From NCBI GenBank assembly GCA_045545295.1, contig JAZQAO010000004.1, forward strand, positions 27,105-91,104: a stretch of 64,000 bases of DNA, given 5' to 3'. The translations under genes and the position numbers were made by a program. This DNA comes from Clostridia bacterium (GTDB taxonomy: Bacteria; Bacillota; Clostridia; UMGS1883). The notes beneath the pieces were generated by a model. The model did not search any database. It was not told the origin of the DNA and saw only the letters and a list, made by a program, of their open reading frames with translations. Shown here piece after piece: positions 8,705-63,326 of the stretch. The stretch's first letter is position 1. Each line of letters opens with the position of its first letter.

Positions 8705-8748
8705 AAAAGTGGCAGTTGGAAAAACAAATTTTCCAACTGCCACTTTTT
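8705..8748. terminator. bidirectional rho-independent terminator
   Basis: AGTGGCAGTTGGAAAA / TTTTCCAACTGCCACT 16-bp stem flanked by an A-run and a T-run, between convergent genes. Confidence 0.8.
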
Positions 8749-8750
8749 AC

Positions 8751-8840
8751 TGTATAGGAATTTATGTAATTTAATCGTGTTCAACATTTGTCTGAATTGA
8801 GTTTAGTTAGAACGCAACGAGTGTGAAATTACACGCTGCT
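8751..8840 (+). repeat. possible degenerate copy (D) of the GTATAGGAATTT repeat family
   Basis: Exact 12-mer GTATAGGAATTT at 8752-8763, starting 3 nt after the terminator T-run as in copies A and B. The rest is only weakly similar and ends in a hairpin plus T-run. Confidence 0.3.
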
Positions 8841-8843
8841 TTT

Positions 8844-10539: not shown

Positions 10540-12498
10540 TTAACCTATTACAAGAAGTTTTGTCAGTCCCGTTGCGGAGAAAAATCTTGAAAACTGGTAA
10601 TTTGCAACACCGAACTGAGGTTCCGTCTTCTGTCCGGGCGGAACAAGATACATACGCTCACACTCAAGTTCTTCAATAACATAGGTCGGGTCCTCTTTTA
10701 GTTTATCAAGATGATGGCGCACCGTTGCAAAACGCGACGCCATAGCCGCGTTATGAAGCTCTGTTACCTCGCTTCCGAAAGCTTTGTTGTAGAAAAGATA
10801 GAATTCGCGTGCTTCTTTTTTGAAATTACCGTAAAGTTCTTCTATTACCTTTGATTCTTCGTAAAGCTTATCAAGCATTTCATTATCACGGGAATCATAA
10901 GCTTTTTTAAGTCTTATTCCGTAATCAGCCTTTACGGAAAGCAGATGCATAATACTCTTAATATATCTGAAGCCAGGTGCAAATAAGCCTTTATCAGGTC
11001 CTCTGTCTTTGAAATTTTCATACATTCTCTTATAGAAAGTGCAGGCATCTACACCCTCGATATACTTGTCAACAAGCCCTATCAACGGGTCATTGTAAAG
11101 AAGAGCAAAGGAGGTTTTGACATAATCCTGTTCAACTGGAACTATACTGTTTTTTCTGCCTGCGGGATAGTTCATTTCTTCAAGGTCAAGGATATCGTCT
11201 GCCGCAAAGCCGAAAATGTACTTAAAACGCTTTTTGATTTCAGCTTCATCATACACTCCGTTATAGTCCATCTCCGCATAAAGTAAAATGCCGTAAAGCG
11301 CCATTACAAGAACGCCCTCGCCGCCATCATTCCACAATGCCGCTAATACATCGCGTACACCGTTTCGCATACAGGCAGAAAGCCCCTCTTTAGCGGAATA
11401 AACAGATAAAAGGTATGCAGGAACAGGTCCGACCCACGTTTGGATACCGCCTGAATACAGAATATTATCTGTAATTTTCTTATGAATTTTCAGTACTTTT
11501 TCATTTTCCTCAGCATCGAACACTTCCTCACCGTTTTCCGATGCAAAAATAGAATGCTGCCAATAGTTGAGCCTTATTCCATCTGGGATACGGTCTAACT
11601 GCTCTTTTGTAAATTCTATGTCCGATGTATATCTCTTTCCCGTAAATATTTGAAAAAGAATGTCACTTGAAAGAGTTATTTCAAAGCCGTACTTATCAGC
11701 AATCTCCTTAACACGGGAAAGATGCTCACAGAATATATCAAACTGCGGTCTTAAACCGTTTTTCTTCTTATATACAACACAGCCAAAGGTCGGTGCCTCA
11801 TCCATTCCCACATCAATACGACGGCTTGTAAAAGAATCGCTTAACGATGCAAACATTTTATCGATAAGGTCGTATGTCTTTTCGCTGCCCACAAGCAAAG
11901 TGCTTACCGGGTTATAATCTTCCCGGCAGTCGCCCATAGTACTCCATTTAAGAATCTGTTCAGCGTGACCGAGAGTCTGTATACACGGGAAAAGCTCAAT
12001 TCCGAATACCTGTGCATATTTATCCATATCACGGATTTCTTCTTTTGTGTATCTTCCGCGCTGATAGCCAAAATACGGATACTCGGGAACTTCAAATATA
12101 TCCTCAAGGTATAAGGAAAGTGTATTAAGCCCCATAATTGCCTGCTTGCGTATTATTTCTTTAACTATTTCAGGTCGAAGCACCATACTGTAGGATACAT
12201 CAAGAAGTGCACCGTTAGTCTTAAAATTCGGGGTTTCCTTTTTATAAAAAGAATCTTTTCCGTCAGCAATTGCTTCACACAGAAGGCCCAAGCCACGGAA
12301 AAAACGGATCGGTTGGTTTCCGTAGGTTATAACTGCTTCTTTTTGTTTTAAAGAAATCTCTACAATCTCATCTTCTGCTTTTTTTACAGATACACATATA
12401 TCTGCCTCTTCCTTTTTTCCAACCGTAAAGCCAAGCTCGGACGAAAGCTCTATAATACCGTAATCAAGGGTATCTGCGGTTTCAAAATATAATATCAT
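10540..12498 (-). CDS. GH20 beta-N-acetylhexosaminidase (GH20C-like, cytoplasmic)
   Basis: 652 aa, no signal peptide. YLEDIFEVPEYPYFGYQRGRYTKEEI, PCIQTLGH and IDVGMDEA (the GH20 D-E pair) match my recollection of Streptococcus pneumoniae GH20C. Confidence 0.85.
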   Translation of the reverse strand: MILYFETADTLDYGIIELSSELGFTVGKKEEADICVSVKKAEDEIVEISLKQKEAVITYGNQPIRFFRGLGLLCEAIADGKDSFYKKETPNFKTNGALLDVSYSMVLRPEIVKEIIRKQAIMGLNTLSLYLEDIFEVPEYPYFGYQRGRYTKEEIRDMDKYAQVFGIELFPCIQTLGHAEQILKWSTMGDCREDYNPVSTLLVGSEKTYDLIDKMFASLSDSFTSRRIDVGMDEAPTFGCVVYKKKNGLRPQFDIFCEHLSRVKEIADKYGFEITLSSDILFQIFTGKRYTSDIEFTKEQLDRIPDGIRLNYWQHSIFASENGEEVFDAEENEKVLKIHKKITDNILYSGGIQTWVGPVPAYLLSVYSAKEGLSACMRNGVRDVLAALWNDGGEGVLVMALYGILLYAEMDYNGVYDEAEIKKRFKYIFGFAADDILDLEEMNYPAGRKNSIVPVEQDYVKTSFALLYNDPLIGLVDKYIEGVDACTFYKRMYENFKDRGPDKGLFAPGFRYIKSIMHLLSVKADYGIRLKKAYDSRDNEMLDKLYEESKVIEELYGNFKKEAREFYLFYNKAFGSEVTELHNAAMASRFATVRHHLDKLKEDPTYVIEELECERMYLVPPGQKTEPQFGVANYQFSRFFSATGLTKLLVIG

Positions 12499-12510: not shown

Positions 12511-14451
12511 TCAGCCCACAACTAAGTTTCTTGCAATTCCTGTTGATGAATAGAAACGTCCGAACTCATAGTCTACTATATTATATACTACCTTTTCAGT
12601 CGGAGGAACCATATATAATCGCTCATCCTCAAGCTCTTCTATTATATAAGATGGGTCTTCTTTCAGCTTGTCAAGATAGTAACGGACCGTCTCAAAACGT
12701 GATGCCATTGCACTGAGGCGGACTTCGATTATTTCGCTTCCCAGATTTTTCGCATAGAATAAATGAAATCTTTGTGCCGTTTCTTTGAAATCCTTATACC
12801 GTTTTTCAAGTTCTATAGCATCGTTATATAAAACTTCCAGCGCCTTTTCATCGCGGGCATCGTAAGCCTTTTTTAGTCTTAAACCGTAATCAGCCTTCAA
12901 CGGCAGTATGTATAAAATGCCCTTTATAAAATCAAATGCCGGTCCGAACAATCCGCTGTCTGTACCTCTGTCCTTAAATTCTCCATACATTTTTGTATAA
13001 AAGCCCTTCGCGTCATAATCTTCAACATGCCTGTCCATAAGACCAAGAATAGGGTCGCTGTAGAAAAGCGCTATTGCTGTCTTTTTATAATCTGCCTCCA
13101 CCGGAAGCTTGTCATTTATTCTTCCCTCGGGGAAGTTTATTTTTTCAAGTTCAATGATATCGTCCGCTTCAAAGCCGAATATGTACTTAAAACGTTTTTT
13201 AATCTCTGCTTCATCATAAAAGCCATTATAGTCCATTTCCGCATAGATCATCAGCGCATACATTGCAAAAACAAGAGGAGCTTCACCGTCGCTCCAGATT
13301 GAGCACAAAACCTCTTTTACATCATTCTTTATACAAGCTTCAAGCGCATTTTTTGCCGAGTAATTTGATAAAAGATATAAAAATACAGGACCAACCCAGC
13401 TTTGAACACCTCCCATATATAAAAGGTTATCAGTCATTGTCTGATGTATTTTGAGCACCTTTTCATTTTCCGCAGCATCAAAAACTTTCTCGTCTTTTTC
13501 CGGAGTATAGATACCATATCTCCAATAGCAAAGCTTTACGCCCTCGGGAATAAGCTTTAATTGTTCTTCTGTAAAAGTAATATCGGAGGTATAATGCCCA
13601 CCTGTCATCATCTTGAAAAACATATCGCTTGAAACCATTATTTCAAAGCCATATTTATCTGCGATTTCCTTTACTTTTTCTATATGACGGCAGAATAATT
13701 CAAACTGAGGCTTAAGACCATTCTTATACTTATAATTTCCAAGACCCATCAGCGATGCTTCGTCCATACCGACCTCAAGATGCTTTGAAGAAAAGCTGTC
13801 TGCAATTGAAGCCATCATTCTGTCAATAAGGTAGTATGTTTTTTCATCATCAAGCATAAGTGTATTTATTGTATCACGATACTCTGTCATAGAATCCCAC
13901 TTAAGTGCCTGTTCAAAGTGACCAAGAGTTTGAATAGATGGAAAAAGTTCGATACCGAAAACTTGTGCATATTTATCCATATCACGGATTTCTTCTTTTG
14001 TGTATCTTCCGCGCATATGGCCAAAATAAGGGTATTCCGGCACTTCAAACATTTCCTCAAGATAGAACATAAATGTATTAAGTCCCATAATAGCCTGTTT
14101 GCGAAGCATTTCCTTTATTATTTCAGGACGGTGAACAAGTTTTCTTGCAAAATCAAACATTGATCCATTCATTGTGAAATTCGGGATTTCCTTTTTTGAA
14201 AAAACTTTTTTTCCGTCGCTTACAGCCTCGCACAAAAGTCCGAGACCCCTGTAAAATCGTATAAGCTGACCACCGTAGACAATGCTTGCCTCTTTTCCGT
14301 TAAGGCTAACCTCAACACAATCTTCATCTGTTTCAGAAACGCTGACAATTATGTCAGCGTTTCCCTTTTCTCCTTTTTCAAAGCCAAGTTCACAGGAAAT
14401 TTCTCTAATTCCATCAAGAAGTTTATCTGCATTCTCAAAATATAAAATCAT
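12511..14451 (-). CDS. GH20 beta-N-acetylhexosaminidase (tandem paralog)
   Basis: 646 aa, collinear with the previous product (YLEEMFEVPEYPYFGHMRGRYTKEEI, LEVGMDEA). Confidence 0.85.
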   Translation of the reverse strand: MILYFENADKLLDGIREISCELGFEKGEKGNADIIVSVSETDEDCVEVSLNGKEASIVYGGQLIRFYRGLGLLCEAVSDGKKVFSKKEIPNFTMNGSMFDFARKLVHRPEIIKEMLRKQAIMGLNTFMFYLEEMFEVPEYPYFGHMRGRYTKEEIRDMDKYAQVFGIELFPSIQTLGHFEQALKWDSMTEYRDTINTLMLDDEKTYYLIDRMMASIADSFSSKHLEVGMDEASLMGLGNYKYKNGLKPQFELFCRHIEKVKEIADKYGFEIMVSSDMFFKMMTGGHYTSDITFTEEQLKLIPEGVKLCYWRYGIYTPEKDEKVFDAAENEKVLKIHQTMTDNLLYMGGVQSWVGPVFLYLLSNYSAKNALEACIKNDVKEVLCSIWSDGEAPLVFAMYALMIYAEMDYNGFYDEAEIKKRFKYIFGFEADDIIELEKINFPEGRINDKLPVEADYKKTAIALFYSDPILGLMDRHVEDYDAKGFYTKMYGEFKDRGTDSGLFGPAFDFIKGILYILPLKADYGLRLKKAYDARDEKALEVLYNDAIELEKRYKDFKETAQRFHLFYAKNLGSEIIEVRLSAMASRFETVRYYLDKLKEDPSYIIEELEDERLYMVPPTEKVVYNIVDYEFGRFYSSTGIARNLVVG

Positions 14452-40896: not shown

Positions 40897-41151
40897 AGAA
40901 AAACAGCCTTAAATTGTAAAATTTAATTCAAAAACCGCACAACATAATTATAATAATTATTTATAATCTTCCCCACGGAAGGATAATGTTTATATAAGCT
41001 ATATAAGCTTGGGAGAGGGAGAAAAATTTATCATCAGAGATAAATTATAGCTATAGATTACTTACTATAAATCATATTATTACATTTATAAAAATGCGTA
41101 TATAGATATACTACAGATATTACTATAAATGAATTTACAGAGGTATTTACA

Positions 41152-42231
41152 ATGACTATACATACATTTGAAACAAGTTGTCTTCTTACCGGAGACGATT
41201 ACTATCTGATACAAGATAAACTGAAAAATGCTGACCCATCCAAATGGGCAAAGGAAAAAACCGGAATGACCTACTGGGGATTTTCCGAAAAAGGAATCAT
41301 AATAAGAACTTTTATAACAAAGAATCAAAAGAAAGGCTATTATGCCTACAATATCATATATAGAATTTCAGCCCGACGAGTCATGGATAATCATGATTTT
41401 GTCGGGCTTTTTGATACAAAGAAATATGAAAAGCTTGAAGAAAAAGTAAATAAACTTCTTCATAAAAAGAGTTCACTTCTCCCCACTCTTGATGAATGCA
41501 AGATGAGAAGAATTGATTTTTGCTTTAATGCAAAGCTTGAAAGTCAGGAGCAAGTGAAGGCATATATAAAAACGATGAAACGTGCAAATATTCCGAATCA
41601 CCTTCATTTACTGGAATCGTATGATAAAAAGTCAAAAAGGACAAAACCTATGAAGGATGATTTTACAGTAACCAACAAGAATTATATAGAGGTTTCAATA
41701 TATAATAAACAAAGACAGATGATTAAAGAGCAAAAAGAGAATAACAAAATCATCTTCCCTGATTCAGAAATTAAACGAGCTGAAAATATTGTCCGTATTG
41801 AAATCCGTTGTATGGAAGGTAAAGTGAGCGAATTAAAGAAAAAATTCAAATTAAAAAGCATACGTGACTTTATGGAGTCATCACAAGAGATAGGTGATTA
41901 TTTATTCAGATACTATCTGTCAAAGATATGCAACGATGGAATAATCTGTACTCTTTCAAAAGCACTCAAAAGAATTGATATGGGAGAATATAATCCTGAG
42001 AACACCGAGCTTTTAAAGGAATTTATAAAGAACGCGAATGAGACACGTAGTGTTGCCGAAGCTATTTGTCTGTACAGAGAATTCTTAAGCAAAAAAGAAG
42101 TTAATCGTATAATCTGGATGCTCTCTAATATAGAAACCAACTATGTAACCGCTACGACAGAAGTTGTAAAATTATTTGACAACGGATATATTACTACACC
42201 ATTGGAATTGTATGAAGATTGGTGTGGTTGA
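41152..42231 (+). CDS. replication initiation factor-like protein (Rep_trans/phage CRI-like)
   Basis: 359 aa. Blocks MRRIDFCFN, IEVSIYNKQRQM and ENIVRIEIRC resemble the RxDxxxD / YdK / RxExxl blocks of Rep_trans initiators as I remember them. Not verified by search. Confidence 0.5.
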   Translation: MTIHTFETSCLLTGDDYYLIQDKLKNADPSKWAKEKTGMTYWGFSEKGIIIRTFITKNQKKGYYAYNIIYRISARRVMDNHDFVGLFDTKKYEKLEEKVNKLLHKKSSLLPTLDECKMRRIDFCFNAKLESQEQVKAYIKTMKRANIPNHLHLLESYDKKSKRTKPMKDDFTVTNKNYIEVSIYNKQRQMIKEQKENNKIIFPDSEIKRAENIVRIEIRCMEGKVSELKKKFKLKSIRDFMESSQEIGDYLFRYYLSKICNDGIICTLSKALKRIDMGEYNPENTELLKEFIKNANETRSVAEAICLYREFLSKKEVNRIIWMLSNIETNYVTATTEVVKLFDNGYITTPLELYEDWCG

Positions 42232-42412
42232 AATAAAAGTGCTTCATACCACATAATTTTCGACATGGATTTCTTGATATTTCTATAAAAAATACTTGAT
42301 TTCCGTCATTTGCCATGATACTTTTAATATCCAAGACAAATATAACTCATAAATAGACATTAAAAAAATTTTCAATGACTCTTTACAAAACTATTAAATT
42401 ATAACAAAGCTA

Positions 42413-42441
42413 TTGACAATATTACTTATAAGTAATATAAT
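42413..42441 (+). promoter_or_regulatory. consensus sigma-70-type promoter with an embedded 16-bp perfect palindrome (candidate operator)
   Basis: TTGACA (42413-42418), 17-nt spacer, TATAAT (42436-42441). The palindrome ATTACTTATAAGTAAT (42421-42436) fills the spacer and its last base is the first T of the -10. Confidence 0.75.
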
Positions 42442-42475
42442 AAAAACACTCCAATAGAAAGGATGTGAAGGTTTT

Positions 42476-42850
42476 TTGGAGATTGAGAAGGTAGACGGAT
42501 ATAAAAAAATATATCAACTTGAAGGTTTTCAAAAAGAATTTGAAAAAACAGTTTCAGAAACAAAGCCAACTGGCAGATATCATAAATGGCTGAAAAAACA
42601 ATTATTCTCTCTAGACGAATACGGGTATGACGCTCTTAAATTCGAAAACTTTGAGCCTTTATCTGATACCAATCCTAAATTATATGCTATCAGATATCCC
42701 CGTTCTAAGAAAAACCCTCGTGTAATATACATATATGTAGATGATTGCGAAGTCTATTTATTACACGCTTTTAAAGAATCAAAAACGAGCGATTATAATC
42801 AAGCGGTTAAAACAGCAGAAAAAAGGGCAAAATTGTTTGTAGGAGAATAA
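42476..42850 (+). CDS. RelE/ParE/Gp49(HigB)-like toxin
   Basis: 124 aa with a TTG start (no in-frame ATG). C-terminal LYAIRYPRSKKNPRVIYIYVDDCEVYLLHAFKESKTSDYNQAVKTAEKRAKLF fits the RelE/Gp49 addiction-toxin pattern. Confidence 0.65.
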   Translation: MEIEKVDGYKKIYQLEGFQKEFEKTVSETKPTGRYHKWLKKQLFSLDEYGYDALKFENFEPLSDTNPKLYAIRYPRSKKNPRVIYIYVDDCEVYLLHAFKESKTSDYNQAVKTAEKRAKLFVGE

Positions 42851-42888
42851 AATATATAAAGATTACCTAGAATGGAAAGGAAAATACA

Positions 42889-43275
42889 ATGAATACAAAT
42901 AAAATATCATCTAATGATTGGTTAATCAAAAATATTTCGGAAGAACAATTTCAAATTGAAAAAACTTTATCCAGTATTGCTGACAAAATTCATTTGAAGA
43001 GACTTGAATTAAATATGGATCAAAAACAATTTGCAAAATATATGCATGTTTCCCAAGGGATGGTTTCTCGTTGGGAGAGCGGTTCCTATAATTTCTCAAT
43101 ATCTACATTGGTTTCAATATGCGAAAAATTAGAATTATCTTTTAAACCAATAATTAATGATTTTGAAGCCAAAGAAGAGCATATTAAATTTATTCAACCT
43201 AATTTAAAAGGCTCTGATAATTGGAAAACTTGGAAACCTACTAAAGACAATATTATAATAGGGGGCGTTGCTTAA
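42889..43275 (+). CDS. XRE-family HTH antitoxin with a C-terminal extension
   Basis: 128 aa. HTH MDQKQFAKYMHVSQGMVSRWESGSYNFSISTLVSICEKL, followed by a ~40-aa aromatic tail (..NLKGSDNWKTWKPTKDNIIIGGVA). Confidence 0.75.
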   Translation: MNTNKISSNDWLIKNISEEQFQIEKTLSSIADKIHLKRLELNMDQKQFAKYMHVSQGMVSRWESGSYNFSISTLVSICEKLELSFKPIINDFEAKEEHIKFIQPNLKGSDNWKTWKPTKDNIIIGGVA

Positions 43276-43736
43276 TGGATCTTAATAAAGTTGTAGCAGA
43301 TTTAGAAATAGAAAAAACAACAATACATAGCATTGAAACCAAATGCGTGATGACCAAATTATCAGATTCAAACAAAAAAACATTTGGGTTGGATATAAAG
43401 TGTAGTCAACCATTAGTTAAAGAAAACAAAAAATATGGAAAGCTTCGTATGCAAATTGATATAAGCATAGATCAAAGCGAATTAGAAGGTGCTGCCGATA
43501 AATTTCAAATTGTTATAGAAGGTGTTTTTTCTTCATCACCATCTATTGAAGATGAAAAATTCATGGAATTATTGAACATAAACGGAGGCACCGCGTTGTA
43601 CTCAATTGCACGTGCAAAAATTGAAGCTATTTCCAGTTTGATATATGATGAAGGCAAAATTCTTCTTCCCATGATTAATATCATTCAATATTACAAAGAA
43701 AAATTTGAAGAAGAGAATAAACATTCAGACGGTTAA
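43275..43736 (+). CDS. SecB-like chaperone (candidate TAC chaperone)
   Basis: 153 aa, start overlaps the antitoxin stop (TAATG). Collinear by eye with E. coli SecB (155 aa), including NINGGTALYSIARAKIEAISSLIYDEGKILLPMINI vs [32 protein letters not shown]. Confidence 0.6.
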   Translation: MDLNKVVADLEIEKTTIHSIETKCVMTKLSDSNKKTFGLDIKCSQPLVKENKKYGKLRMQIDISIDQSELEGAADKFQIVIEGVFSSSPSIEDEKFMELLNINGGTALYSIARAKIEAISSLIYDEGKILLPMINIIQYYKEKFEEENKHSDG

Positions 43737-43773
43737 CCCTTCTTCATAGGTTTAAAAATAGATTCTTTATCCC

Positions 43774-43810
43774 TCCCCGCAAGCTAGATAGTTTGTGGGG
43801 ATTATTTCTT
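43774..43810 (+). terminator. rho-independent terminator of the three-gene cassette
   Basis: TCCCCGCAA / TTGTGGGGA stem (one G-U pair) followed by a T-rich run. Confidence 0.6.
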
Positions 43811-43816
43811 TCTGGG

Positions 43817-43944
43817 CTTGATTTTTACTTGACTCATAGTTGACTAGGATCCTGATAATAGGTAACAAAAGGCTTAATTATATGGATTTTTTAGTTGATT
43901 CATAGTTGATTTTATAAATAATCAAAACTTATAAAACTTGACTC
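43817..43944 (+). repeat. iteron-like direct repeats (TTGAYT core, 6 copies; CATAGTTGAYT twice)
   Basis: Cores at 43817-43823, 43828-43834, 43838-43845, 43893-43900, 43904-43911 and 43935-43944. Confidence 0.5.
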
Positions 43945-43965
43945 TTATAAAAATAATAGTATAAT
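43938..43965 (+). promoter_or_regulatory. promoter for the small acidic ORF
   Basis: TTGACT (43938-43943), 16-nt spacer, TATAAT (43960-43965). Confidence 0.6.
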
Positions 43966-44013
43966 AAATTCAAACAGATTTATTCTGGAATTGCATATTA
44001 GGAGGTGCTGTTA

Positions 44014-44139
44014 ATGCAAAAAGTTATAATTGATTCAGGGATGAGCTTATGTGTTGCCATAAATTCCGACTCGATTGAAAATAACGAAGACATTATGGAT
44101 GATGACACAATATCAGAAGAAAGCGATAACGAAGAATAG
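44014..44139 (+). CDS. 41-aa highly acidic small protein (hypothetical)
   Basis: AGGAGG sits 8 nt upstream of the ATG. MQKVIIDSGMSLCVAINSDSIENNEDIMDDDTISEESDNEE. Too short for the ORF track. Confidence 0.4.
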   Translation: MQKVIIDSGMSLCVAINSDSIENNEDIMDDDTISEESDNEE

Positions 44140-44311
44140 TTTGCCACAAATTTGCCACAACACGATATCAAAAATGGCAAAAATTACACACTTTACGGCA
44201 AAAAAATAAACAGCAAGGTATACAAAACCTACTGTTTTGGCGGTTTTAAGGCATTTTTTAACGATATAGGACACTCTCTATAGAACTCAAAGAGATAATT
44301 ATTTTATCTAC

Positions 44312-44349
44312 AAAACCCCACAACCGTGATGGTTGTGGGGTTTCTTTTT
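44312..44349. terminator. bidirectional rho-independent terminator
   Basis: CCCCACAACC / GGTTGTGGGG 10-bp stem with an A-run on the left and a T-run on the right. It lies downstream of the integrase remnant (minus) and the small ORF (plus). Confidence 0.75.
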
Positions 44350-44386
44350 ACCTCCGTGCCACGAATTTGCCACAAATTACGCTATG

Positions 44387-44628
44387 TTATACACTATGTA
44401 GAGCATTTGAAACGGTCCTTGCCACTCTTACTTTGACCTCATTATACATATGAGCATAGACCTTAGATGTCGTTTCAACACTTGCGTGTCCTAAGTGAGC
44501 AGAGACATTCTCTATATCTTCACCAGCAAACAATAATAACGAGGCGTTTGTATGTCTCAGCCCGTGAATAGTCAGATTGTGGTCAAGGTTAAGTTCTTCC
44601 TTAAACTCTATTGTTTTAATTATGCTGA
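44387..44628 (-). pseudogene. tyrosine recombinase/integrase, C-terminal fragment only
   Basis: Own translation: ..EFKEELNLDHNLTIHGLRHTNASLLLFAGEDIENVSAHLGHASVETTSKVYAHMYNEVKV..*. This carries the HxLRH, LGH and catalytic Y motifs. An in-frame stop lies just upstream and there is no N-terminal domain or start codon. Confidence 0.8.
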
Positions 44629-44700
44629 ATTATACACCACTGCTCACTATATTTATACTACCACTTTCTTTTTGAAGTTGCAATAATATTTAAGAATGTA

Positions 44701-44794
44701 AAAAAGAAGCGTACCGCTTCACCCGTGTCGCACTCTCACAGAAGTGTAAACACAGTTTCCTGCGTCTTAATTTGACGCAAATTCCTATACGGTG
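44701..44794 (-). repeat. multi-hairpin repeat family, copy A
   Basis: Minus-strand reading: CACCGTATAGGAATTTGCGTCAAATTAAGACGCAGGAAAC...GAAGCGGTACGCTTCTTTTT. About 87% identical to copy C by eye. Confidence 0.8.
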
Positions 44795-44828
44795 AAAAAG
44801 CACTGTTCGTTTGATGAAACAGTGCTTT
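44795..44828 (-). terminator. rho-independent terminator of 44839-46281
   Basis: AAAGCACTGTT / AACAGTGCTTT stem plus T5 on the minus strand. Confidence 0.8.
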
Positions 44829-44838
44829 ATTACAGTGA

Positions 44839-46281
44839 TTATTCTACTCTAGTTCTAATATTGCCAGTTACATAGTTTATATCAACTCTATAACGTGACT
44901 CTCCAGGTGTAAGTTTTTGTGTTCCTGTAAGATATATTCCTAATTCACACCAATCAGTATCATCTAGTGAATAATTATTTAGGTTTACCTGATTCCAACC
45001 AGGATTGTCAACACTATTAAAGAACAATTGTCCATTTCCACTGTTAAATGTAACTTTAATACAATGATGTTCAGATTTTAAATCAGGCAAGTAAAATTTT
45101 AATATATTTCCTTCTCTAACATAAGAGTTTTTAACATCCTCTATGACGAGCTTTGCATATTCTTCATTGATAGCTGTTTGATATATTTCTGTATTGTTAT
45201 AATCATTATGCTGTCCTGACATTACTGAATGTTGATGACTCTTTTCATATGCTTTTGTTGTATCTCCCCATTTGAGGGCTCCAAAAGTATATTGGTATCT
45301 TTCTTCAGCCTCCGGATTTACAACCTGGTCTAGCGAATAAACCCAAGGTAATGCTTTTCTTTCTGCATCAGTATAAAAATCACGTCCCCAGTTCTCCCAC
45401 CCAAAGAACTTTTGTTTTGTATAGTCTTTTGTAGCTTTGCAACACTCATTTATAAGTTTAAATATTTCTGCACGTGTTACATTTCCCATAGGTGAGATAT
45501 GACCTGCTCCGTTTCCTACCATTATACCCTTGTCCTTTAAAAGCATAATTGCTGCACCCTGTTCCATAGGTATATAACCTTGTTCAAACATTTTTTTAGC
45601 TATGCTACTATAATATGAGGCAACAACCTCATATCTACCATTAGGTGCAAAATATTCATCACTGGTCCATACGTGTTGTGAAAAGTCAGAATATTCACCC
45701 ATGGTAGAAAAGTCATTGTTTTGTACTTTGTTTATGTAATCTTCTAAACCTTTAGAGTCTATAATTTTAGCTAAAACGTAAGCTACTTCAGACCTCTTCA
45801 TTGGTGACTCCATAAACTCTACTTGCATCAGTTGACTACTATTATAAGGAAAAGCTTTAGCCATTACATTATAGTAATTGTTATACCACTTACCATCAAA
45901 ATATTTATTTATTAAACTACCACCTGACGGTATATAACCTTCAAATGCTGTAGTTATCATTTTAGCAAATTCCCCACCTGTTACAGGATTGTTAGGTCTT
46001 ATTGTTCCATCAGGATAACCCGATATTACACCTGTTGCAATAGGCATTATTGCATATTCATCCCACCAACCACTTTCAGTAGGAAAGGCTTCCTTATAAG
46101 CCTCTAGAAGTTCAGGCTTTGCTTTTTCAAATTCTTGTATTGCCTCTTCTACCTGCGAATACTGATAAAGTGTATATCCTACTGGACTTACTTCATCAGC
46201 AAAAGCAGTTAAACATCCAAAAGTCATACAAAAAATCAATAAAACGCACGATAAGTTAATAATATTCTTTTTAATTTTCAT
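44839..46281 (-). CDS. secreted protein with divergent SLH-like repeats
   Basis: 480 aa with a signal peptide (..CLTAFADE). SLH-like segments (ATGVISGYPDGTIRPNNPVTGGEFAKMI; KGIMVGNGAGHISPMGNVTRAEIFKLI). Confidence 0.6.
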   Translation of the reverse strand: MKIKKNIINLSCVLLIFCMTFGCLTAFADEVSPVGYTLYQYSQVEEAIQEFEKAKPELLEAYKEAFPTESGWWDEYAIMPIATGVISGYPDGTIRPNNPVTGGEFAKMITTAFEGYIPSGGSLINKYFDGKWYNNYYNVMAKAFPYNSSQLMQVEFMESPMKRSEVAYVLAKIIDSKGLEDYINKVQNNDFSTMGEYSDFSQHVWTSDEYFAPNGRYEVVASYYSSIAKKMFEQGYIPMEQGAAIMLLKDKGIMVGNGAGHISPMGNVTRAEIFKLINECCKATKDYTKQKFFGWENWGRDFYTDAERKALPWVYSLDQVVNPEAEERYQYTFGALKWGDTTKAYEKSHQHSVMSGQHNDYNNTEIYQTAINEEYAKLVIEDVKNSYVREGNILKFYLPDLKSEHHCIKVTFNSGNGQLFFNSVDNPGWNQVNLNNYSLDDTDWCELGIYLTGTQKLTPGESRYRVDINYVTGNIRTRVE

Positions 46282-46293
46282 AATTTACACCTT

Positions 46294-47067
46294 TTATCCT
46301 TCCCAATGAACTTTGCAATTTGATGGTGCACCCCAGTATGTTCCATCACCACTTAATTCTATACTCCCTCTTTCTTTCTCTATGTATATGTCTTTTAAGT
46401 TTATACATTCAAAAAATACATCTCCGTCTATTTTTGAAATATTTGCAGGCAATGTTATTTCTTTAAGTTCTGTACAACCTCGGAATGCAGACTCACCTAT
46501 ATCTAAAACACCATTTCCTAAATTCACGCTATTTAGTTTTGTACAATTCTCAAATGCTGCTGTTTTTATCATTGTGACGCTATCAGGTATTGTAATGCTT
46601 TCCAGACTTGTACATTCTGAAAATGCACCAAACCCTATTTTAGTTACACCATCAGGAATGTTTATGTTTTTTAGTTTTTTACATCGTGAAAATGCAAACT
46701 GCCCTATTGTTTCAATTTCCTTATTTAATATTACATCAGTGATGTTCTCACATTCATAAAATGTAGATTCACCAATATGTGTTATTCCAGTATCAAATAT
46801 TACCTTTTTCACAATTTCTCTATGTTCATAAGAAAAACAATTCTTGTATCTATCCGTCATTTTACCTTGACCAATCAATGTAAGTGTTCCGTCTCCCATA
46901 AGCTCCCACTCAATTTCAGAACCACAAGTGCCTGTTGCAACCAATTCATCAGAAGCATAGCTTTTTGTAATCTCATCTTCAACTTTGTTTGCAGAACGGC
47001 AAGCGGTAATTGTAAAAGCAAGCACCAAAAGTAATAATGCCACTGATAATTTTTTAATATGTCTCAT
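46294..47067 (-). CDS. BspA-type leucine-rich-repeat lipoprotein
   Basis: True start is MRHIKKLSVALLLLVLAFTITAC (lipobox), with AGGAGGAG upstream. Repeated I(P/T)xxVxxIGxxAFxxCxxL units. Confidence 0.8.
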   Translation of the reverse strand: MRHIKKLSVALLLLVLAFTITACRSANKVEDEITKSYASDELVATGTCGSEIEWELMGDGTLTLIGQGKMTDRYKNCFSYEHREIVKKVIFDTGITHIGESTFYECENITDVILNKEIETIGQFAFSRCKKLKNINIPDGVTKIGFGAFSECTSLESITIPDSVTMIKTAAFENCTKLNSVNLGNGVLDIGESAFRGCTELKEITLPANISKIDGDVFFECINLKDIYIEKERGSIELSGDGTYWGAPSNCKVHWEG

Positions 47068-47169
47068 TTTCTCCTCCTGTATGCAATATTTATAATCCGT
47101 ATAGTTATACCACTTTTTTGTTAGATTGTCAAGTTTCGCTGTATTAAATAAGCATTTACAAAATCCAAC

Positions 47170-47240
47170 GATGTCGCACCCTCGCAGGAGTGCAAACAAA
47201 GTTTCCTGCGTCATAATTTGACGCAAATTCCTATACGGTG
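47170..47240 (-). repeat. multi-hairpin repeat family, copy B (lacks the terminal hairpin)
   Basis: Nearly identical to copy C over ~70 nt (GTCGCACCCTCGCAGGAGTGCAAACAAAGTTTCCTGCGTCATAATTTGACGCAAATTCCTATACGGTG on the plus strand). Confidence 0.85.
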
Positions 47241-47270
47241 AGAAAGGCGCAGCGGAAATCCGCTGCGCCC
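47241..47270 (-). terminator. rho-independent terminator of rhaA
   Basis: GGCGCAGCGG / CCGCTGCGCC 10-bp stem plus TTTCT on the minus strand. Confidence 0.8.
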
Positions 47271-47312
47271 GACTATTTATATAAACTCATGGCAAGTTTA
47301 TATCAGATTAAA

Positions 47313-48545
47313 TTATCTTTTTGAAAGAACTTCTTTCTCGTACCTTAGCACTTCGTCTATGTAGTTTGCACTCACATTTTCGCGGCTAAGGTACTCTGCC
47401 CACACATCACCGAAGGGTGCTGTCTTGAGTTCTTCCTGAAGAACCATAAGCTCTGTAAGTCTATTTTCATTTTGAAGTGACTTAAGAGTATCTACAGGTT
47501 GTAAAAGTGCGTTAAGGAGTGCTTTCTGCACACTTCTCATACCTGTTACCCAAGCGGAGATACGGTTAATTGATGCATCAAAGTAGTCTGTTGCAATGAA
47601 TACACGGTCAAGTGCATCGTGATGCACTATTTCCTTTGCAATTTCCTTTGTTTCATCATCAAACAAAACTACGTGGTCACTGTCCCATCTTACGCCACGT
47701 GTTACGTGAAGAGCAATCTTTTCGTGGAAGGGAAGCATTGCTGCAATTTTATCGGATACCACTTCTGTGGGATGATAGTGACCGTTATCCATAAGGGGTG
47801 TGATACCCTTCTGATTTACATAGTTAAGGCAGAATTCTGCACTTCCTACTGTGTATGATTCCATACCTATACCGAATACCTTTGATTCAAGGCATACATA
47901 AACCTTTTCCTTGTCATAAGGAATAGAAAGGATTTCGTCAAGGGATTTCTTGAATCTTTCTCTCGGTCCGAGTCTGTCTGCAGGGATGTCCTTGTAGCCG
48001 TCTGGAATCCAGATATTCATTACACAGGGGATGCCTGTTTCTTCTGCAAAGTACTGTGATATTTCAACACATCTTTTGCCGTGTTCTACCCAGAACTTTC
48101 TCACTTCTTCATCGGGGGAAGAAAGTGTAAGATTATCCTTTACCATTGCGTGGGAGAAGAATGTGGGGTTAAAGTCAAGTCCCATTCCTCTTTCCTTTGC
48201 AAAATCCACCCAAGCCTTGAAGTGTTCGGGACGGAGTGCATCTCTGTCTGCTTTATTTCCGTTAAATACGGCATAGCAGGCGTGAACATTGATTTTCTTT
48301 TTACCGGGAATAAGGCTCATTGCTTTGTCAATATCCGCCATTAATTCTTCGGGAGAGGTTGCTCTGCCGGAGTAATTACCTGTTGCCTGGATACCTCCTG
48401 TAAGAGAACCGATGCTGTCAAAGCCGATTACGTCATCCCCCTGCCAGCAGTGCATGGAAATAGGTATGTTTTTTACTGCTTCAATTGCTTTTTCCGCATC
48501 TACGCCAAGACGTGCGTAGATTTCTTTCGCTTCGTTAAAACGCAT
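47313..48545 (-). CDS. rhaA: L-rhamnose isomerase
   Basis: 410 aa, collinear with E. coli RhaA as I recall it (PISMHCWQGDDV.GF, LTGGIQATGNY, NIWIPDG.KDI, RWDSDHVVL.DDET). Confidence 0.9.
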   Translation of the reverse strand: MRFNEAKEIYARLGVDAEKAIEAVKNIPISMHCWQGDDVIGFDSIGSLTGGIQATGNYSGRATSPEELMADIDKAMSLIPGKKKINVHACYAVFNGNKADRDALRPEHFKAWVDFAKERGMGLDFNPTFFSHAMVKDNLTLSSPDEEVRKFWVEHGKRCVEISQYFAEETGIPCVMNIWIPDGYKDIPADRLGPRERFKKSLDEILSIPYDKEKVYVCLESKVFGIGMESYTVGSAEFCLNYVNQKGITPLMDNGHYHPTEVVSDKIAAMLPFHEKIALHVTRGVRWDSDHVVLFDDETKEIAKEIVHHDALDRVFIATDYFDASINRISAWVTGMRSVQKALLNALLQPVDTLKSLQNENRLTELMVLQEELKTAPFGDVWAEYLSRENVSANYIDEVLRYEKEVLSKR

Positions 48546-48666
48546 ATATTACACCTCTTATATATTTATTTCTACAACTTCACCTGTTTCCGTTTATAAC
48601 GGCGGTAAGGATTTCGCTGTATTTAACAATAACATTAACCTTTTTAACAAGTCTGTCTTTACCGTT

Positions 48667-48759
48667 AAAAAGAAGCGTGCCGCTTCACCCACGTTGCACC
48701 CTCGCAGGAGTGCAAACAAAGTTTACTGCGTCATAATTTGACGCAAATTCCTATACGGG
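48667..48759 (-). repeat. multi-hairpin repeat family, copy C (full length)
   Basis: Three hairpins (TGCGTCA/TGACGCA; GCACTCCT/AGGGTGC; GAAGCG/CGCTTC plus T5 on the minus strand). Confidence 0.85.
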
Positions 48760-53926: not shown

Positions 53927-54112
53927 TAAAGGGGTTTGTTAAGGGGTATCCCCTTGACATAAAATCCGTTAAAAACGGGGGCGCGTACCTCGTTTTTAAC
54001 TCCTTACAAGGTCTACCGCGGTGAGCGGTGCGCGAGCGAAAGACCTTCACTCGCAACAAATGCTTTTACGAAGTAAAACTTTTGTTGCGAAAGGATGACT
54101 CTGTCATCCTTT
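53927..54112 (-). repeat. ~183-bp structured repeat, copy S1 (gyrB-gyrA spacer)
   Basis: Its reverse complement matches 63144-63326 with about 8 mismatches over the ~165-nt core. Contains at least 4 strong hairpins. Confidence 0.9.
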
Positions 54113-56049
54113 TATACATCGAGGTTTGTTACATACTGTGCATTTTCTTCAATGAATTCACGTCTGGGCTCAACCTCATCACCCATAAGGATGCTGAATA
54201 TCTGGTCAGCCTTTTCGGCATCCTCAAGAGTAACCTTAAGGAGTATTCTGTTCTTCGGGTCCATAGTTGTTTCCCAAAGCTCTTCAGCATTCATTTCACC
54301 AAGACCTTTATAACGGCTTATTTCTACTTTTGCATTAGCATCACCGTTTTTAAGCTCTTCACTTATCTGATCTCTTTCTTCATCACTGAACGCTACCTGA
54401 GATTTTTTACCTCTTGAAAGCTTATAAAGGGGTGGCTTTGCAAGATATATATGCCCTGTTTCCACAAGTTCACGCATAAATCTGAAGAAGAATGTAAGGA
54501 GCAGCGTCTGAATATGTGCACCGTCGACGTCGGCATCCGCCATAATAATTACTTTGTCGTAACGGAGCTTTTCTATATTGAATTCACCGCCTATACCTGT
54601 TCCCAATGCCTGAATAACAGGTGTAAGCTTTTCATTTCCGTAAACCTTGTCTTCTCTCGCCTTTTCTACGTTAAGCATTTTACCCCAGAGAGGAAGGATT
54701 GCCTGATATTTACTGTCACGTCCTTTTTTTGCACTGCCTCCCGCACTATCACCCTCGACAATGTAAATTTCCGTCATTGTAGGATCTTTGGATATACAGT
54801 CGGTAAGCTTACCGGGAAGTGTAGAAGAACCAAGGGGAGTTTTTCTTGTAGCCTCTCTCGCTCTTCTTGCGGCAAGTCTTGCACGTGATGCCATAAGAGC
54901 TTTTTCAATAATAGCCTTACCAACGTTTGGATTTTCCTCAAGAAAATCTGCAAGCTTTTCCTTAACCATACTCTCAACAAGAGTACGCATTTCACTGTTT
55001 CCGAGCTTTGTTTTAGTCTGTCCTTCAAACTGAGGCTCTTCAAGCTTAACGGAAATTACGGCTATAAGACCTTCACGGGCATCTTCACCTGTCAGCTCTT
55101 CGTCATCCTTTATAAGCTTGTACTTTTTACCGTAGTCTAAAAGCACCTTTGTAAGAGCAGCCTTAAAGCCTGTTTCATGCATACCTCCCTCTGTTGTGGA
55201 AATATTGTTTGCAAATGACTCTATAACTTCGTCATAGCCTGTATTCCACTGGAGAGCAACCTCTGCCATACTTCCGTTTTTCTCACCGCTTACGTAAATT
55301 ACGTCACTGTGAACTTCCTCAAGAGTATCTTTTCTCTTCTTTTTATCGTTAAGAAGATAAGAAACGAAGTTTTTAATACCGCCTTCGTACTGGAGAATTT
55401 CTTCTCTCTTTTCTTCTCTGTCATCCTTGAATACAATTTTAATTCCGCCGTTAAGAAACGCCTGTTCACGAAGTCTCTTTAAAAGAACTTCATAATCATA
55501 AACTGTTTCATCGAATATCTCACCGTCTGCCCAGAAAGTAACTTGCGTACCGGTTCTGTCAGTTTTTCCGATAGTATGAACTTCACCGTCGGGAACACCT
55601 CTTTTATAGCTCTGAAACCACACGTTTTCACCGTCGTGTACTTCTACCTCAAGCTTTGTTGAAAGAGCATTAACAACAGATGCACCAACACCGTGAAGAC
55701 CGCCGGAAACCTTGTATCCTCCACCGCCGAACTTACCGCCTGCGTGAAGCACGGTAAAAATAACGTCAATTGTGGAGATACCCATCTTCGGATGAATACC
55801 GTGAGGCATACCACGTCCGTTATCCTTTACTGTAACGGAGCCGTCAGCATTAAGACTTACGTCAATCTGCGTGCAATAGCCTGCAAGTGCTTCGTCAATA
55901 CTGTTGTCTACTATTTCGTAAACAAGATGATGAAGACCTCTTACCGACGTTGAACCGATGTACATACCGGGTCTTTTACGTACAGCCTCAAGTCCTTCCA
56001 GTACCTGTATTTGATTTTCGTCGTAGGAATTATTAACTTTCTGTTCCAA
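54112..56049 (-). CDS. gyrB: DNA gyrase subunit B
   Basis: [24 protein letters not shown] begins ~10 residues after the TTG at 56049. The 34-codon upstream extension in the track overlaps the remB-like gene and has no GyrB similarity. Confidence 0.95.
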
Positions 56050-56356
56050 TTGAGTCAATCCTTTCTGCTCTCTTATAAAGTGTCTGCGATGAAATCTGCG
56101 ACACAAATATATTCTTTTCTTTTTTATTTTTATCAATGTCGGATGCGACACGGTTGAAGCGGCACGCTTCTTTTTTATTTTTTGTAATTATAAACGTTTT
56201 CGGAATATCGTAAGAAATATATTCTATATTTCCTTTTTTGTCGTTTATTTTTAAAAATTCTCTTGTTTTTTTACTTATAGACGTGTTTTCAAGATCAAAT
56301 ATACCTACAATATCTTTTTTACTTAATATTTTTCCTTCACCTATATGCAAAAACAT
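56033..56356 (-). CDS. DUF370/RemB-like small protein
   Basis: 107 aa in the conserved position between recF and gyrB in Firmicutes. ..[12 protein letters not shown].. motif. Confidence 0.7.
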
Positions 56357-63141: not shown

Positions 63142-63143
63142 TC

Positions 63144-63326
63144 GGATGGCAACGCCATCCTTTCGCAACAAAAGTTTTACTTCGTAAAAGCATTCGTTGC
63201 GAGTGAAGGTCTTTCGCTCGCGCACCGCTCACCGCGGTAGACCTTGTAAGGTGTTAAAAACGAGGTACACGCCCCCGTTTTTAACGGAATTTATGTTAAG
63301 GGGTATCCCCTTAACAATCCCCTTTA
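63144..63326 (+). repeat. ~183-bp structured repeat, copy S2 (jag-mnmE spacer)
   Basis: Inverted with respect to S1. It starts with the jag terminator hairpin GGATGGC/GCCATCC. Confidence 0.9.

Follow-up and report, generated by a model that had tools for sequence, protein, structure and literature searches.

A family of short (~95-nt) noncoding repeats lies directly behind intrinsic transcription terminators, both in the 64-kb stretch of Clostridia DNA analyzed here (the window) and in related uncultured Clostridia of gut type. Of the 15 copies whose 5′ end is intact, sampled from about eight genomes or bins, 14 begin 2–6 nt past the T-tract of a strong terminator hairpin. The reading we favor, to which we give roughly an even chance, is that the repeat is a small nonautonomous mobile DNA element that integrates at terminator T-tracts, a form of targeting previously known mainly from the much larger group IIC introns. 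An initial annotation of the window had listed such an element among its proposals, and the idea gains from this placement, from the differing genes that carry copies in relatives, from conservation above that of gyrase, and from the presence or absence of an element fragment in remB.

Copies in the Window Belong to One Family with Constant Ends

The three direct copies first described in the window (A, B, and C; Table 1) are confirmed: a 38-nt core is matched three times with ≤1 mismatch each, where shuffled sequences predict no match. Their reported identities were approximately correct, with 4 differences between B and C over 70 nt (2–3 had been claimed) and copy A 88–91% identical to other main-type copies (about 87% claimed). 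The fourth locus, at 8751, had been suggested by a shared 12-mer that is not significant by itself (~0.6 chance 12-mer matches are expected per 95-nt query). It is nonetheless a genuine member, as shown by its full-length profile match and by three metagenomic copies (L017, L018, and L022) that are intermediate between copy D and the main type. Copy D has the common 5′ TGTATAGGAATTT and ends in CACGCTGC-T6, where the stop codon of a convergent gene (8844–10523) overlaps its last TT plus A. A further fragment (E, ..GATGCGACACGGTTGAAGCGGCACGCTTC-T6) runs antisense within remB.

Table 1. Positions of element copies and neighboring features in the window
Feature	Position	Strand	Details
Copy A, full length, main subtype	44700–44791	minus	family profile E=4e-27; 5′ CGTATAGGAATTT ... 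3′ GAAGCGGTACGCTTC-T6
Copy B, main subtype, 3′ end truncated	47169–47237	minus	profile positions 2–77, E=4e-20
Copy C, full length, main subtype	48667–48757	minus	profile E=6e-28
Copy D, divergent subtype	8751–8845	plus	profile E=1e-15 over whole 98 nt
Fragment E, 3′ third of element	56140–56177	plus	profile E=9e-8
Terminator of SLH gene (44839–46281)	44795–44827	minus	3 nt (CAC) between its T5 and copy A; dG -11.1
Terminator of rhaA (47313–48545)	47241–47270	minus	GGCGCAGCGG-aaat-CCGCTGCGCC plus TTTCT; dG -21.7
Terminator of amidohydrolase gene (7812–8675)	8709–8748	plus	2 nt (AC) between its T5 and copy D; dG -23.6
Sigma-70-type promoter, outside element	47104–47133	minus	TTGACA-17-TATAAC, TG before it; read from sequence
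Integrase C-terminal remnant, outside element	44386–44583	minus	Pfam PF00589, profile positions 118–169 of 172
Orphan rpsI 3′ end plus terminator, outside element	44283–44345	plus	

The element is about 80–98 nt long and contains no open reading frame. Across subtypes, both ends stay constant, as YGTATAGGAAWTT on the 5′ side and the terminator GGGTGAAGCGGCACGCTKC-T5-6 on the 3′ side, and the interior varies between subfamilies except for a few short conserved blocks. The sequence GTATAGGAA is invariant in 15/15 copies, including the most diverged, a point against the mobile-element reading in that the resident copies could instead serve a function in the host. One copy (L004) is a mosaic, joining a main-type 5′ half to an 8751-type 3′ end. 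Terminal inverted repeats are absent: the 5′ ACYGTATAGGAATTT and the 3′ ...CACGCTTCTTTTTT give no reverse-complement match in any of the 15 copies. The 3′ end is itself a second terminator, GAAGCG-gca-CGCTTC plus T5-6, as had been noted for full copies; A and C carry both hairpin and T-run, and the truncated copy B stops after ...GCGACATCG and has neither.

Copies Begin a Few Nucleotides behind Strong Terminators

The hairpins behind which copies sit are strong (dG -11 to -24 kcal/mol) and mutually unrelated in sequence. In the window, copies A and B begin 3 and 5 nt past the T-rich tails of their upstream terminators, as reported earlier; for B, the distance is 3 nt (CAC) from the end of the rhaA terminator and 5 nt (CTCAC) by an automated count from its TTT run. 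Copy D is also placed as described, at a measured 2 nt rather than 3. Copy C departs from the general claim of placement right behind terminators: it has no T-tract or hairpin just upstream, and it is the only copy without a canonical terminator there. The element always has the orientation of the upstream gene, and the next gene is convergent in eight loci, so the element is not a 5′ leader. At copy B, the rhaA terminator lies on one side of it and the promoter of the downstream LRR lipoprotein gene on the other, a promoter that an automated scan missed because its -10 hexamer ends in C.

The hairpin is part of the target. The junction motif TTT[TC][AG]C occurs 241 times in the window, 31 times in intergenic DNA, and only 9 of these 31 lie behind a hairpin. 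The left flank is TTAC in 9/15 copies, with TCAC (2), TCGC, TTGC, TTCC, and more in the others. Full copies are bordered by T-tracts on both sides, constant on the right (5–6) and varying from 3 to 7 on the left, and the base following the T-tract is the same left and right in 7/11 copies, a proportion not above chance. Four convergent loci retain the whole T6, and in each of them the TAA stop of the opposing gene consists of the element's last TT plus A. The same overlap of stop and T-tract is present at an element-free convergent gene pair (L042).

Element Conservation Is Out of Step with Host Genomes

Eleven further copies were found in related uncultured Clostridia, a group with gyrA proteins 92–94% identical in which some members are labeled Ruminococcaceae/Oscillospiraceae. 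Main-type copies are 94–99% identical across four species, and the dnaA-to-gyrA DNA of three of these species is 77–89% identical, so that conservation of the element is out of step with that of the genomes. The genes upstream of copies are unrelated and mostly housekeeping, including SLH, rhaA, amidohydrolase, MTHFS, AraC, aroQ, malK-like, queT, nagB, and rpsI, and among the species compared we saw no gene whose 3′ end is occupied in two genomes. The rpsI terminator carries a copy in one genome (L024) and none in 12 relatives, whose 3′ flanks differ; comparison of the rpsI and coaX 3′ flanks, which are rearranged in relatives, yielded no clean filled/empty pair of orthologous terminators.

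A presence/absence difference involves fragment E. It lies within an in-frame 51-nt insertion (about 56132–56183) that is absent from the 90-aa RemB of relatives. An in-frame block containing the element fragment is likewise present in L024, at 39 nt, and is absent in L025 and L026. The remB block is an insertion polymorphism of an element fragment.

A crude extrapolation from unbiased loci gives a density of about one copy per 27 kb, and in about 440 kb examined this was the sole unit found repeated behind terminators. Plasmid, phage, and viral collections searched with the element gave no match, and no full-length autonomous version was seen among the copies found.

Comparison with Known Elements and Possible Mobilization in Trans

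If the element is mobile, the enzyme that moves it would act in trans and be encoded at another genomic location. Such an enzyme may recognize the shape "hairpin plus T-tract", which the target would share with the element's own 3′ end, and would join the element in, or directly after, the target's T-tract. Insertion there should be harmless, breaking no gene and following the point at which transcription has already ended, and the added terminator may insulate neighboring genes. No mobilizing gene and no gene traveling with the element was found beside the copies, and there was no Y1/HUH transposase among the window ORFs with inspected N-termini or the Pfam-scanned neighbor genes.

Several known systems share part of this behavior. 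Group IIC introns are ribozymes of several hundred nucleotides or more with domains I–VI, usually a reverse-transcriptase ORF, and a 5′ GUGYG. The element starts YGTATAGG, and its length, its lack of an ORF, and the absence of any match to Rfam intron models even at E=10 reject its identity as such an intron. The likeness lies in oriented insertion just after a terminator: group IIC introns choose such sites behind intrinsic terminators by recognizing a DNA hairpin plus very short pairing (PMC12584367, PMC4424553), a target choice that gives them a harmless intergenic location.

Derivatives of IS200/IS605 and REP/RAYT elements resemble the element in having no terminal inverted repeats, no evident target duplication, strict orientation, and a hairpin near an end. 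IS200/IS605 derivatives also insert 3′ of a short motif, and the commonest left flank of the element, TTAC, is the target of IS608. Membership in this group would call for similar subterminal hairpins at the two ends. Hairpins 1 (TGCGTCA/TGACGCA) and 3 (GAAGCG/CGCTTC) bear no relation to each other, and subtypes other than the main one have lost the left-end hairpin. A REP or REPIN is moreover a palindrome, unlike the unit described here, and the element needs a terminator hairpin in its target, which to our knowledge is not a feature of the IS200/IS605 family. REP/RAYT nonetheless provides a precedent for movement in trans by a single-copy enzyme (PMC3333891).

IS1272 / TnSha1 (IS1182 family) of staphylococci is, like the element, aimed at terminator hairpins and has little primary-sequence specificity. 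The cut made by IS1272 falls within the stem and part of the hairpin is lost; its insertions occur in either orientation, and it encodes a transposase and is bounded by inverted repeats (PMC4923244). The element differs in each respect, leaving the hairpin intact and sitting behind the T-tract in a fixed orientation, and it has neither inverted repeats nor a gene. The defining marks of MITEs are terminal inverted repeats, which the element lacks, and target-site duplications, which are not evident in it. It shares a short, noncoding, dispersed, and intergenic character and division into subfamilies with MITEs and small intergenic repeats such as BOX, RUP, ERIC, and Correia, some of which carry terminators or promoters (PMC10969869).

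A bolder proposal, which we hold to be distinctly improbable, would place the element in a new class of bacterial mobile DNA that spreads specifically to gene ends by copying itself, and does so because its own 3′ end mimics an intrinsic terminator. One conceivable route would be DNA recombination that is structure-specific and takes place within the T-tract. In the other, SINE-like route, a reverse transcriptase borrowed from elsewhere would copy an RNA ending in the terminator's U-tract, starting at a nick in the target terminator's A-tract. Were this true, either route would yield a "mobile terminator" able to shift the points at which transcription units stop.

Folding and Promoter Evidence Argue against a Small RNA Family

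It is unlikely that the repeats are instead a small RNA family or 3′-UTR module whose copies multiplied because they are useful. Such an RNA, of ~95 nt, would be made by terminator read-through or from an unrecognized promoter, would end at the element's own terminator, and would offer its single-stranded 5′ end (GUAUAGGAAUUU) as a seed or protein-binding site. Trans-acting small RNA families usually combine a conserved 5′ end, a variable middle, and a conserved terminator, and the element has this layout, with GTATAGGAA invariant in every copy. The fold of the main type is also more stable than that of shuffled sequence (z = -2.3 to -2.7), and in hairpin 2 of copy A, a main-subtype copy, the changes preserve pairing on the minus (sense) strand alone, where G-U pairs form.

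However, the three-hairpin fold described in the initial annotation holds for the main subtype only. The other subtypes lack hairpins 1 and 2 and fold no better than shuffles (z = +0.1 to +1.5), and the consensus fold retains essentially nothing but the terminal terminator and, marginally, a 4-bp stem at the 5′ end (covariation term -0.3). Helix 2 is paired in just 54% of cells. Covariation across the aligned copies, which the annotation had proposed as a check, is not above controls (score 0.162 vs. 0.150 in shuffles, reached by 63/500). We found no consistent sigma-70 promoter, with no hexamer pair at a fixed position on either strand, and the unrelated strong terminators upstream of the 5′ end leave no room for a conserved one. 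Nor does the window hold an excess of near-matches or complements to the 12-mer. The sequence therefore does not support a discrete structured RNA or 3′-UTR-derived small RNA, and the fixed 2–6 nt spacing from terminators would be unexplained under it unless an insertion mechanism were added. The related remark that the repeat is not any named RNA family agrees with a search of the whole window against Rfam 15, which gave no match at the gathering threshold and sub-threshold matches only on generic upstream terminator hairpins.

Invariant Sequence and a Common Left Border Disfavor Spread without an Enzyme

It is in our judgment quite unlikely that the unit spread with no dedicated enzyme, through template switching or illegitimate recombination at T-tracts during replication. 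Any segment between two "hairpin plus T-tract" structures could then be copied behind another terminator, and a spare terminator would be kept as harmless or useful. Several observations fit: full copies have T-tracts after hairpins at both borders, the T-rich TTCTTTTTTATTTTT is repeated on both sides of the remB fragment, opposing stops overlap the element's T-tract exactly as at the element-free terminator site, and copy L004 is a mosaic. Yet such a process needs no specific sequence, and GTATAGGAA is invariant and this unit alone was seen repeated behind terminators in the ~440 kb examined. The same left border is unlikely to arise from more than a dozen independent rare events, and near-identity across species would still demand transfer between genomes.

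The Integrase Remnant beside Copy A Belongs to a Different Scar

The DNA downstream of gyrA that contains copies A, B, and C is hypervariable, and each gene block in it ends in a terminator that, on the favored reading, has been hit by the element. The initial annotation had raised the possibility that the copies are recombination sites shuffling surface-protein cassettes, and had noted a tyrosine-recombinase remnant abutting copy A. A link between the copies and that recombinase is not supported. The remnant is real, as its PF00589 match attests. It is paired with the orphan rpsI 3′ end and terminator, and the segment 44283–44583 is the attachment-site scar of a different integrative element that targets the rpsI 3′ end.

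Gene-cassette sites resembling integron attC, at which a recombinase would move the WG/SLH, rhaA, and LRR+SLH blocks, are highly improbable: three direct copies do set off gene blocks, in DNA that is wholly different among close relatives, and in L024 an EAL gene is flanked by two copies in opposite (converging) orientation, but copies are mostly solitary and flank housekeeping genes, none of them has a linked recombinase gene, and the unit has no attC-type core sites (RYYYAAC/GTTRRRY ends) and forms separate small hairpins, or scarcely any fold, rather than a single imperfect hairpin. Ordinary homologous recombination between copies may have occurred. On the favored reading, copies A, B, and C arose by separate insertions or by recombination and do not serve as sites for cassette exchange.

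Copies in the window and in related Clostridia

The repeats of the window form one family. As claimed in the initial annotation, there are three 95-nt direct copies (A, B and C), recovered here with a repeat finder, and they share a 38-nt core that matches three times with at most one mismatch, against zero matches expected from shuffles. Every gene from gyrB through the SLH gene lies on the minus strand, so the element is informative when read on that strand, where the main type (A, B and C) has the layout 5′-(C)AC-CGTATAGGAATTT-GCGTCAaattaTGACGC-AGGAAACTTTGTTT-GCACTCCtgcgAGGGTGC-GACATGGGT-GAAGCGgcaCGCTTC-TTTTTT. The suspected fourth copy at 8751, of a divergent type, proved a true member: a family profile built from an alignment of copies detects it with E=1e-15 across 98 nt, and the same profile detects a 3′ element fragment (Table). 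Local segmental duplication as the origin of A, B and C was rejected, since similarity stops at the element limits.

Table. Coordinates of the features discussed (window positions unless a relative's locus is named)
Feature	Position	Strand	Remark
Copy A	44791-44700	minus	full length
Copy B	47237-47169	minus	without last hairpin
Copy C	48757-48667	minus	full length
3′ element fragment	56140-56177		detected by family profile
remB	56033-56356		insertion about 56132-56183
Integrase C-terminal remnant	44386-44583	minus	PF00589
Orphan rpsI 3′ end + terminator	44283-44345	plus	close match to relatives' real rpsI 3′ end
Rep-like gene	41152-42231		in decayed integrative element
Gp49/HigB-like toxin + HTH partner	42476-43275		in decayed integrative element
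~190-nt repeat	53927-54118, 63143-63326; L024 827-1018; L025 9787-9967; L026 6407-6587

Further copies came from related Clostridia, whose loci and contigs carry L-numbers. An 18-mer query against genome collections gave four true copies (L004, L005, L009, L010) in three Clostridia MAGs, the remaining eight loci being chance matches. A two-ended metagenome pattern (5′ 12-mer, gap of 50–80 nt, 3′ ACGCTKCTTTT) gave three subtype-2 copies in one assembly (L017, L018, L022), intermediate between the main type and the 8751 locus of the window. Viral matches to the pattern, like most metagenome matches, are chance occurrences inside coding sequence, and no match to the element links it to phages or plasmids. 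Loci not selected for the element, namely origin regions and rpsI loci of close relatives reached via gyrA and RpsI homologues, yielded four further distinct copies (L024a, L024b, L029, to which L030 is identical, and L051). About 9 copies lie in these ~240 kb, which by crude extrapolation would give each genome from tens to about a hundred copies. GyrA from L024 and L025 is 94% and 92% identical to that of the window, and the two contigs come from the MAGs that also supplied L009 and L004/L005; the carriers are thus a group of close relatives, some of them labelled Ruminococcaceae/Oscillospiraceae. Overall, the sample comprises 15 copies, drawn from some eight genomes or bins, and the evidence is entirely sequence-based. 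The element's sequence strings were not found described in the literature searched.

Placement behind terminators

Among copies with an intact 5′ end, 14/15 start 2–6 nt past a T-tract with a strong hairpin immediately ahead of it (ΔG −11 to −24 kcal/mol), and these hairpins are wholly different in sequence and length. AC is the commonest sequence separating the T-tract from YGTATAGG. The initial annotation placed the repeats right behind gene terminators, which is correct for copy A, starting 3 nt (CAC) past the SLH-gene terminator, and for copy B, starting 3 nt (CAC) past the TTTCT tail of the rhaA terminator (5 nt, CTCAC, by automated count from the TTT run), but not for copy C, which has no canonical terminator in front. 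The window has 241 occurrences of the motif TTT[TC][AG]C, 31 of them between genes, and only 9/31 intergenic occurrences stand behind a hairpin, several of them being the occupied sites themselves. Insertion is thus associated with the hairpin and not with the short motif alone.

The genes ahead of the copies are unrelated and mostly ordinary, encoding in the window an SLH protein, RhaA and an amidohydrolase, and elsewhere a 5-formyl-THF cyclo-ligase, an AraC regulator, a large surface protein, aroQ, a malK-like ATPase, queT, nagB, rpsI and small ORFs; no gene recurs beside the element among the neighbours of the copies examined. The next gene is convergent at eight copies outside A–C, the 8751 locus included, and copies A and B are each followed by a good sigma-70-type promoter (for B, TTGACA-17-TATAAC at 47133–47104). 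The idea of a leader had been raised because all genes in the 44–50 kb region lie on the minus strand, with a terminator-ended element upstream of the next gene; these downstream promoters and convergent neighbours exclude a 5′ leader, riboswitch or attenuator. Judged by position, the element belongs with the 3′ end of the preceding gene and not with the gene that follows. Its orientation simply tracks gene orientation, which makes replication strand bias uninformative. In L024 (14867–15724), two divergent copies in opposite, converging orientation stand on either side of a single EAL-domain gene, one behind a small-ORF terminator and the other behind the rpsI terminator.

At all four convergent loci with an intact T6 (8751, L005, L017, L022), the opposing TAA stop overlaps the element's T-tract, coinciding with its last two T's and the next A. 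The element-free convergent pair coaX/AraC in L042 has the same overlap between terminator T-tract and opposing stop. On the simplest reading, the right-end T-tract of the element would occupy the former place of the target terminator's T-tract, in which case the join would lie in or at the T-tract and could have arisen by T-tract duplication, by crossover within the T-tract or by insertion just after it. L009 (6982–7000) and L051 (13555–13575) have no 3′ T-tract and share the tail TTCATCTGT, which unrelated convergent genes ending inside it read in different frames; the tail may represent an alternative form of the element's 3′ end.

Conserved sequence and fold

Across subtypes, the 5′ end is conserved as YGTATAGGAAWTT, with GTATAGGAA present in 15/15 copies, and the 3′ end as GGGTGAAGCGGCACGCTKC followed by T5–6, while the short interior blocks CGYG, RAAC and GCGA are invariant or nearly so. 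Terminal inverted repeats are absent from the element. The proposed three-hairpin fold survives in the main type, which folds better than shuffles (z = −2.3 to −2.7), and is lost in subtype 2 and the 8751 copy (z = +0.1 to +1.5). RNAalifold retains only the terminal terminator and a marginal 4-bp 5′ stem, with a covariation term of −0.3, and helix 2 of the proposed model is paired in only 54% of alignment cells. Covariation among the aligned copies lends the fold no support (score 0.162, equalled or passed by 63/500 shuffles). No Rfam family matches at its gathering threshold, in line with the initial impression that the repeat is no named RNA family, and sub-threshold matches sit on generic upstream terminators. 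An sRNA or 3′-UTR module would fit the conserved 5′ end and the terminator, but the element has neither a conserved fold nor a promoter, no sigma-70-type hexamer pair occurring at a consistent position on either strand, and such a module would leave the placement behind terminators unexplained; we consider it unlikely.

Three further candidates were rejected. The palindrome TGCGTCA-N5-TGACGCA, a conceivable transcription-factor operator, is missing from the other subtypes. The 5′ block was also set against consensus sequences for alternative sigma promoters (sigma-H, F/G, E/K, ECF, sigma-54), and in no case does the required second element follow at the proper distance. Finally, a small ORF is excluded on either strand by an ATG that is not conserved (copy A, subtype 2).

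Evidence for movement

Main-type copies are 94–99% identical across four species, L005 and L009 differing solely at the first (Y) base over ~86 nt, whereas dnaA-to-gyrA DNA of three of those four species is only 77–89% identical. Element subfamilies coexist within one genome, and L004 joins a main-type 5′ half to a 3′ end of the 8751 type, which makes it a mosaic copy. Among the species compared, there is no case of the same gene's 3′ end being occupied in two of them. The rpsI terminator is followed by a copy in L024 and by none in 12 relatives, whose 3′ flanks differ and offer no clean empty site; a search for empty sites at the rpsI and coaX loci likewise found rearranged flanks in all relatives and no clean empty site.

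Within remB, the window and L024 carry in-frame insertions of 51 and 39 nt, respectively, that contain the 3′ part of the element in antisense. Four other relatives have a RemA-like protein of 90 aa, against 107 aa in the window and 103 aa in L024; the 17 and 13 additional residues are encoded by the in-frame antisense repeat fragment. The insertion is absent from L025 and L026, and in L050 and L051, too, RemB is of the short, 90-aa form. A repeated T-rich sequence brackets the insertion. Spread without an enzyme, through template switching or recombination at T-tracts, would fit both the remB fragment and the element borders but not the invariant 12-mer, and we regard it as distinctly unlikely. 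That the copies are cassette recombination sites is very improbable.

Interpretation and relation to known elements

The 14/15 placement, the dispersed sites, the conservation exceeding that of the genomes and the remB polymorphism make a terminator-targeting mobile element, one of the possibilities raised initially, the best reading, in which we have moderate confidence. The chances are about even that the element is non-autonomous and integrates at terminator T-tracts, always in one orientation, bringing its own terminator. No candidate for a mobilising enzyme turned up in the sequence examined. Its 3′ end is shaped like the target, a hairpin followed by a T-tract, which suggests that target recognition would be structure-based.

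To our knowledge, terminator targeting is rare and has so far been tied to group IIC introns and, differently, to IS1272. Closest in behaviour are group IIC introns, which recognise the terminator hairpin and insert behind it (PMC12584367; PMC4424553), but their ribozyme features are all absent from the element. Closest in architecture are IS200/IS605 derivatives and REP/RAYT elements, the latter moved in trans (PMC3333891), which like the element lack inverted repeats and are oriented. They also lie 3′ of a short motif, for which the element may offer a parallel, with TTAC as its left flank in 9 of 15 copies. The hairpins at their ends, or the palindromic unit, have no counterpart here. IS1272 also targets terminators but, unlike the element, cuts inside the stem, inserts in both orientations and has inverted repeats (PMC4923244). 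By definition, the element is not a MITE.

A 95-nt element without an ORF or inverted repeats that targets terminators would imply an unrecognised form of safe-site choice. It would supply ready-made extra terminators able to insulate or uncouple adjacent genes, and the hypervariable surface-protein region beside the replication origin could be rearranged through its 95-nt homologies. Such repeats can also break metagenomic assemblies at gene ends, and terminator-based predictors could mistake them for sRNA genes. Were the family a functional RNA instead, its strict placement behind terminators would itself demand a new explanation.

Other features of the region

The tyrosine-recombinase remnant reported beside copy A is real, comprising the C-terminal catalytic part (positions 118–169 of 172 of the PF00589 profile). 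Directly beyond it lies an orphan piece made of the last ~15 nt of rpsI, the rpsI terminator and downstream sequence; the window holds no full rpsI gene. Judging from these matches, the remnant and the orphan rpsI end are together the attachment-site scar of an rpsI-targeting integrative element. A link of copy A to the recombinase is not supported, their adjacency being a coincidence of the variable gyrA–rpsI region. The decayed integrative element, including remnant and scar, spans 41100–44600, and the motif GTGGCAAATT[CT]GTGGCA is repeated near 44140–44165 and 44365–44390.

The gene rhaA (47313–48545) encodes a complete L-rhamnose isomerase (Pfam RhaA, E=2e-176) and stands alone amid surface-protein genes; rhaB, rhaD and transporter genes were recognised nowhere in the window. 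The repeats D1 and D3 from the repeat finder, spaced 1953 nt apart, are explained by a tandem pair of paralogous genes at 10540–12498 and 12511–14451, whose products of 652 and 646 aa resemble each other at the N-terminus. Another repeat, ~190 nt long and unrelated to the element, occupies the gyrB–gyrA spacer and, in opposite orientation, the region downstream of jag; it is 76–92% conserved in relatives and contains GC-rich hairpin-like segments, with no Rfam match. Five independent assemblies (L043–L047) end 50–160 nt after coaX in the same sequence (GGCTACAACCGTAGCC...CAGTGTGTCGATAAACCTATCGACACACTG), which suggests another assembly-breaking repeat or mobile element.
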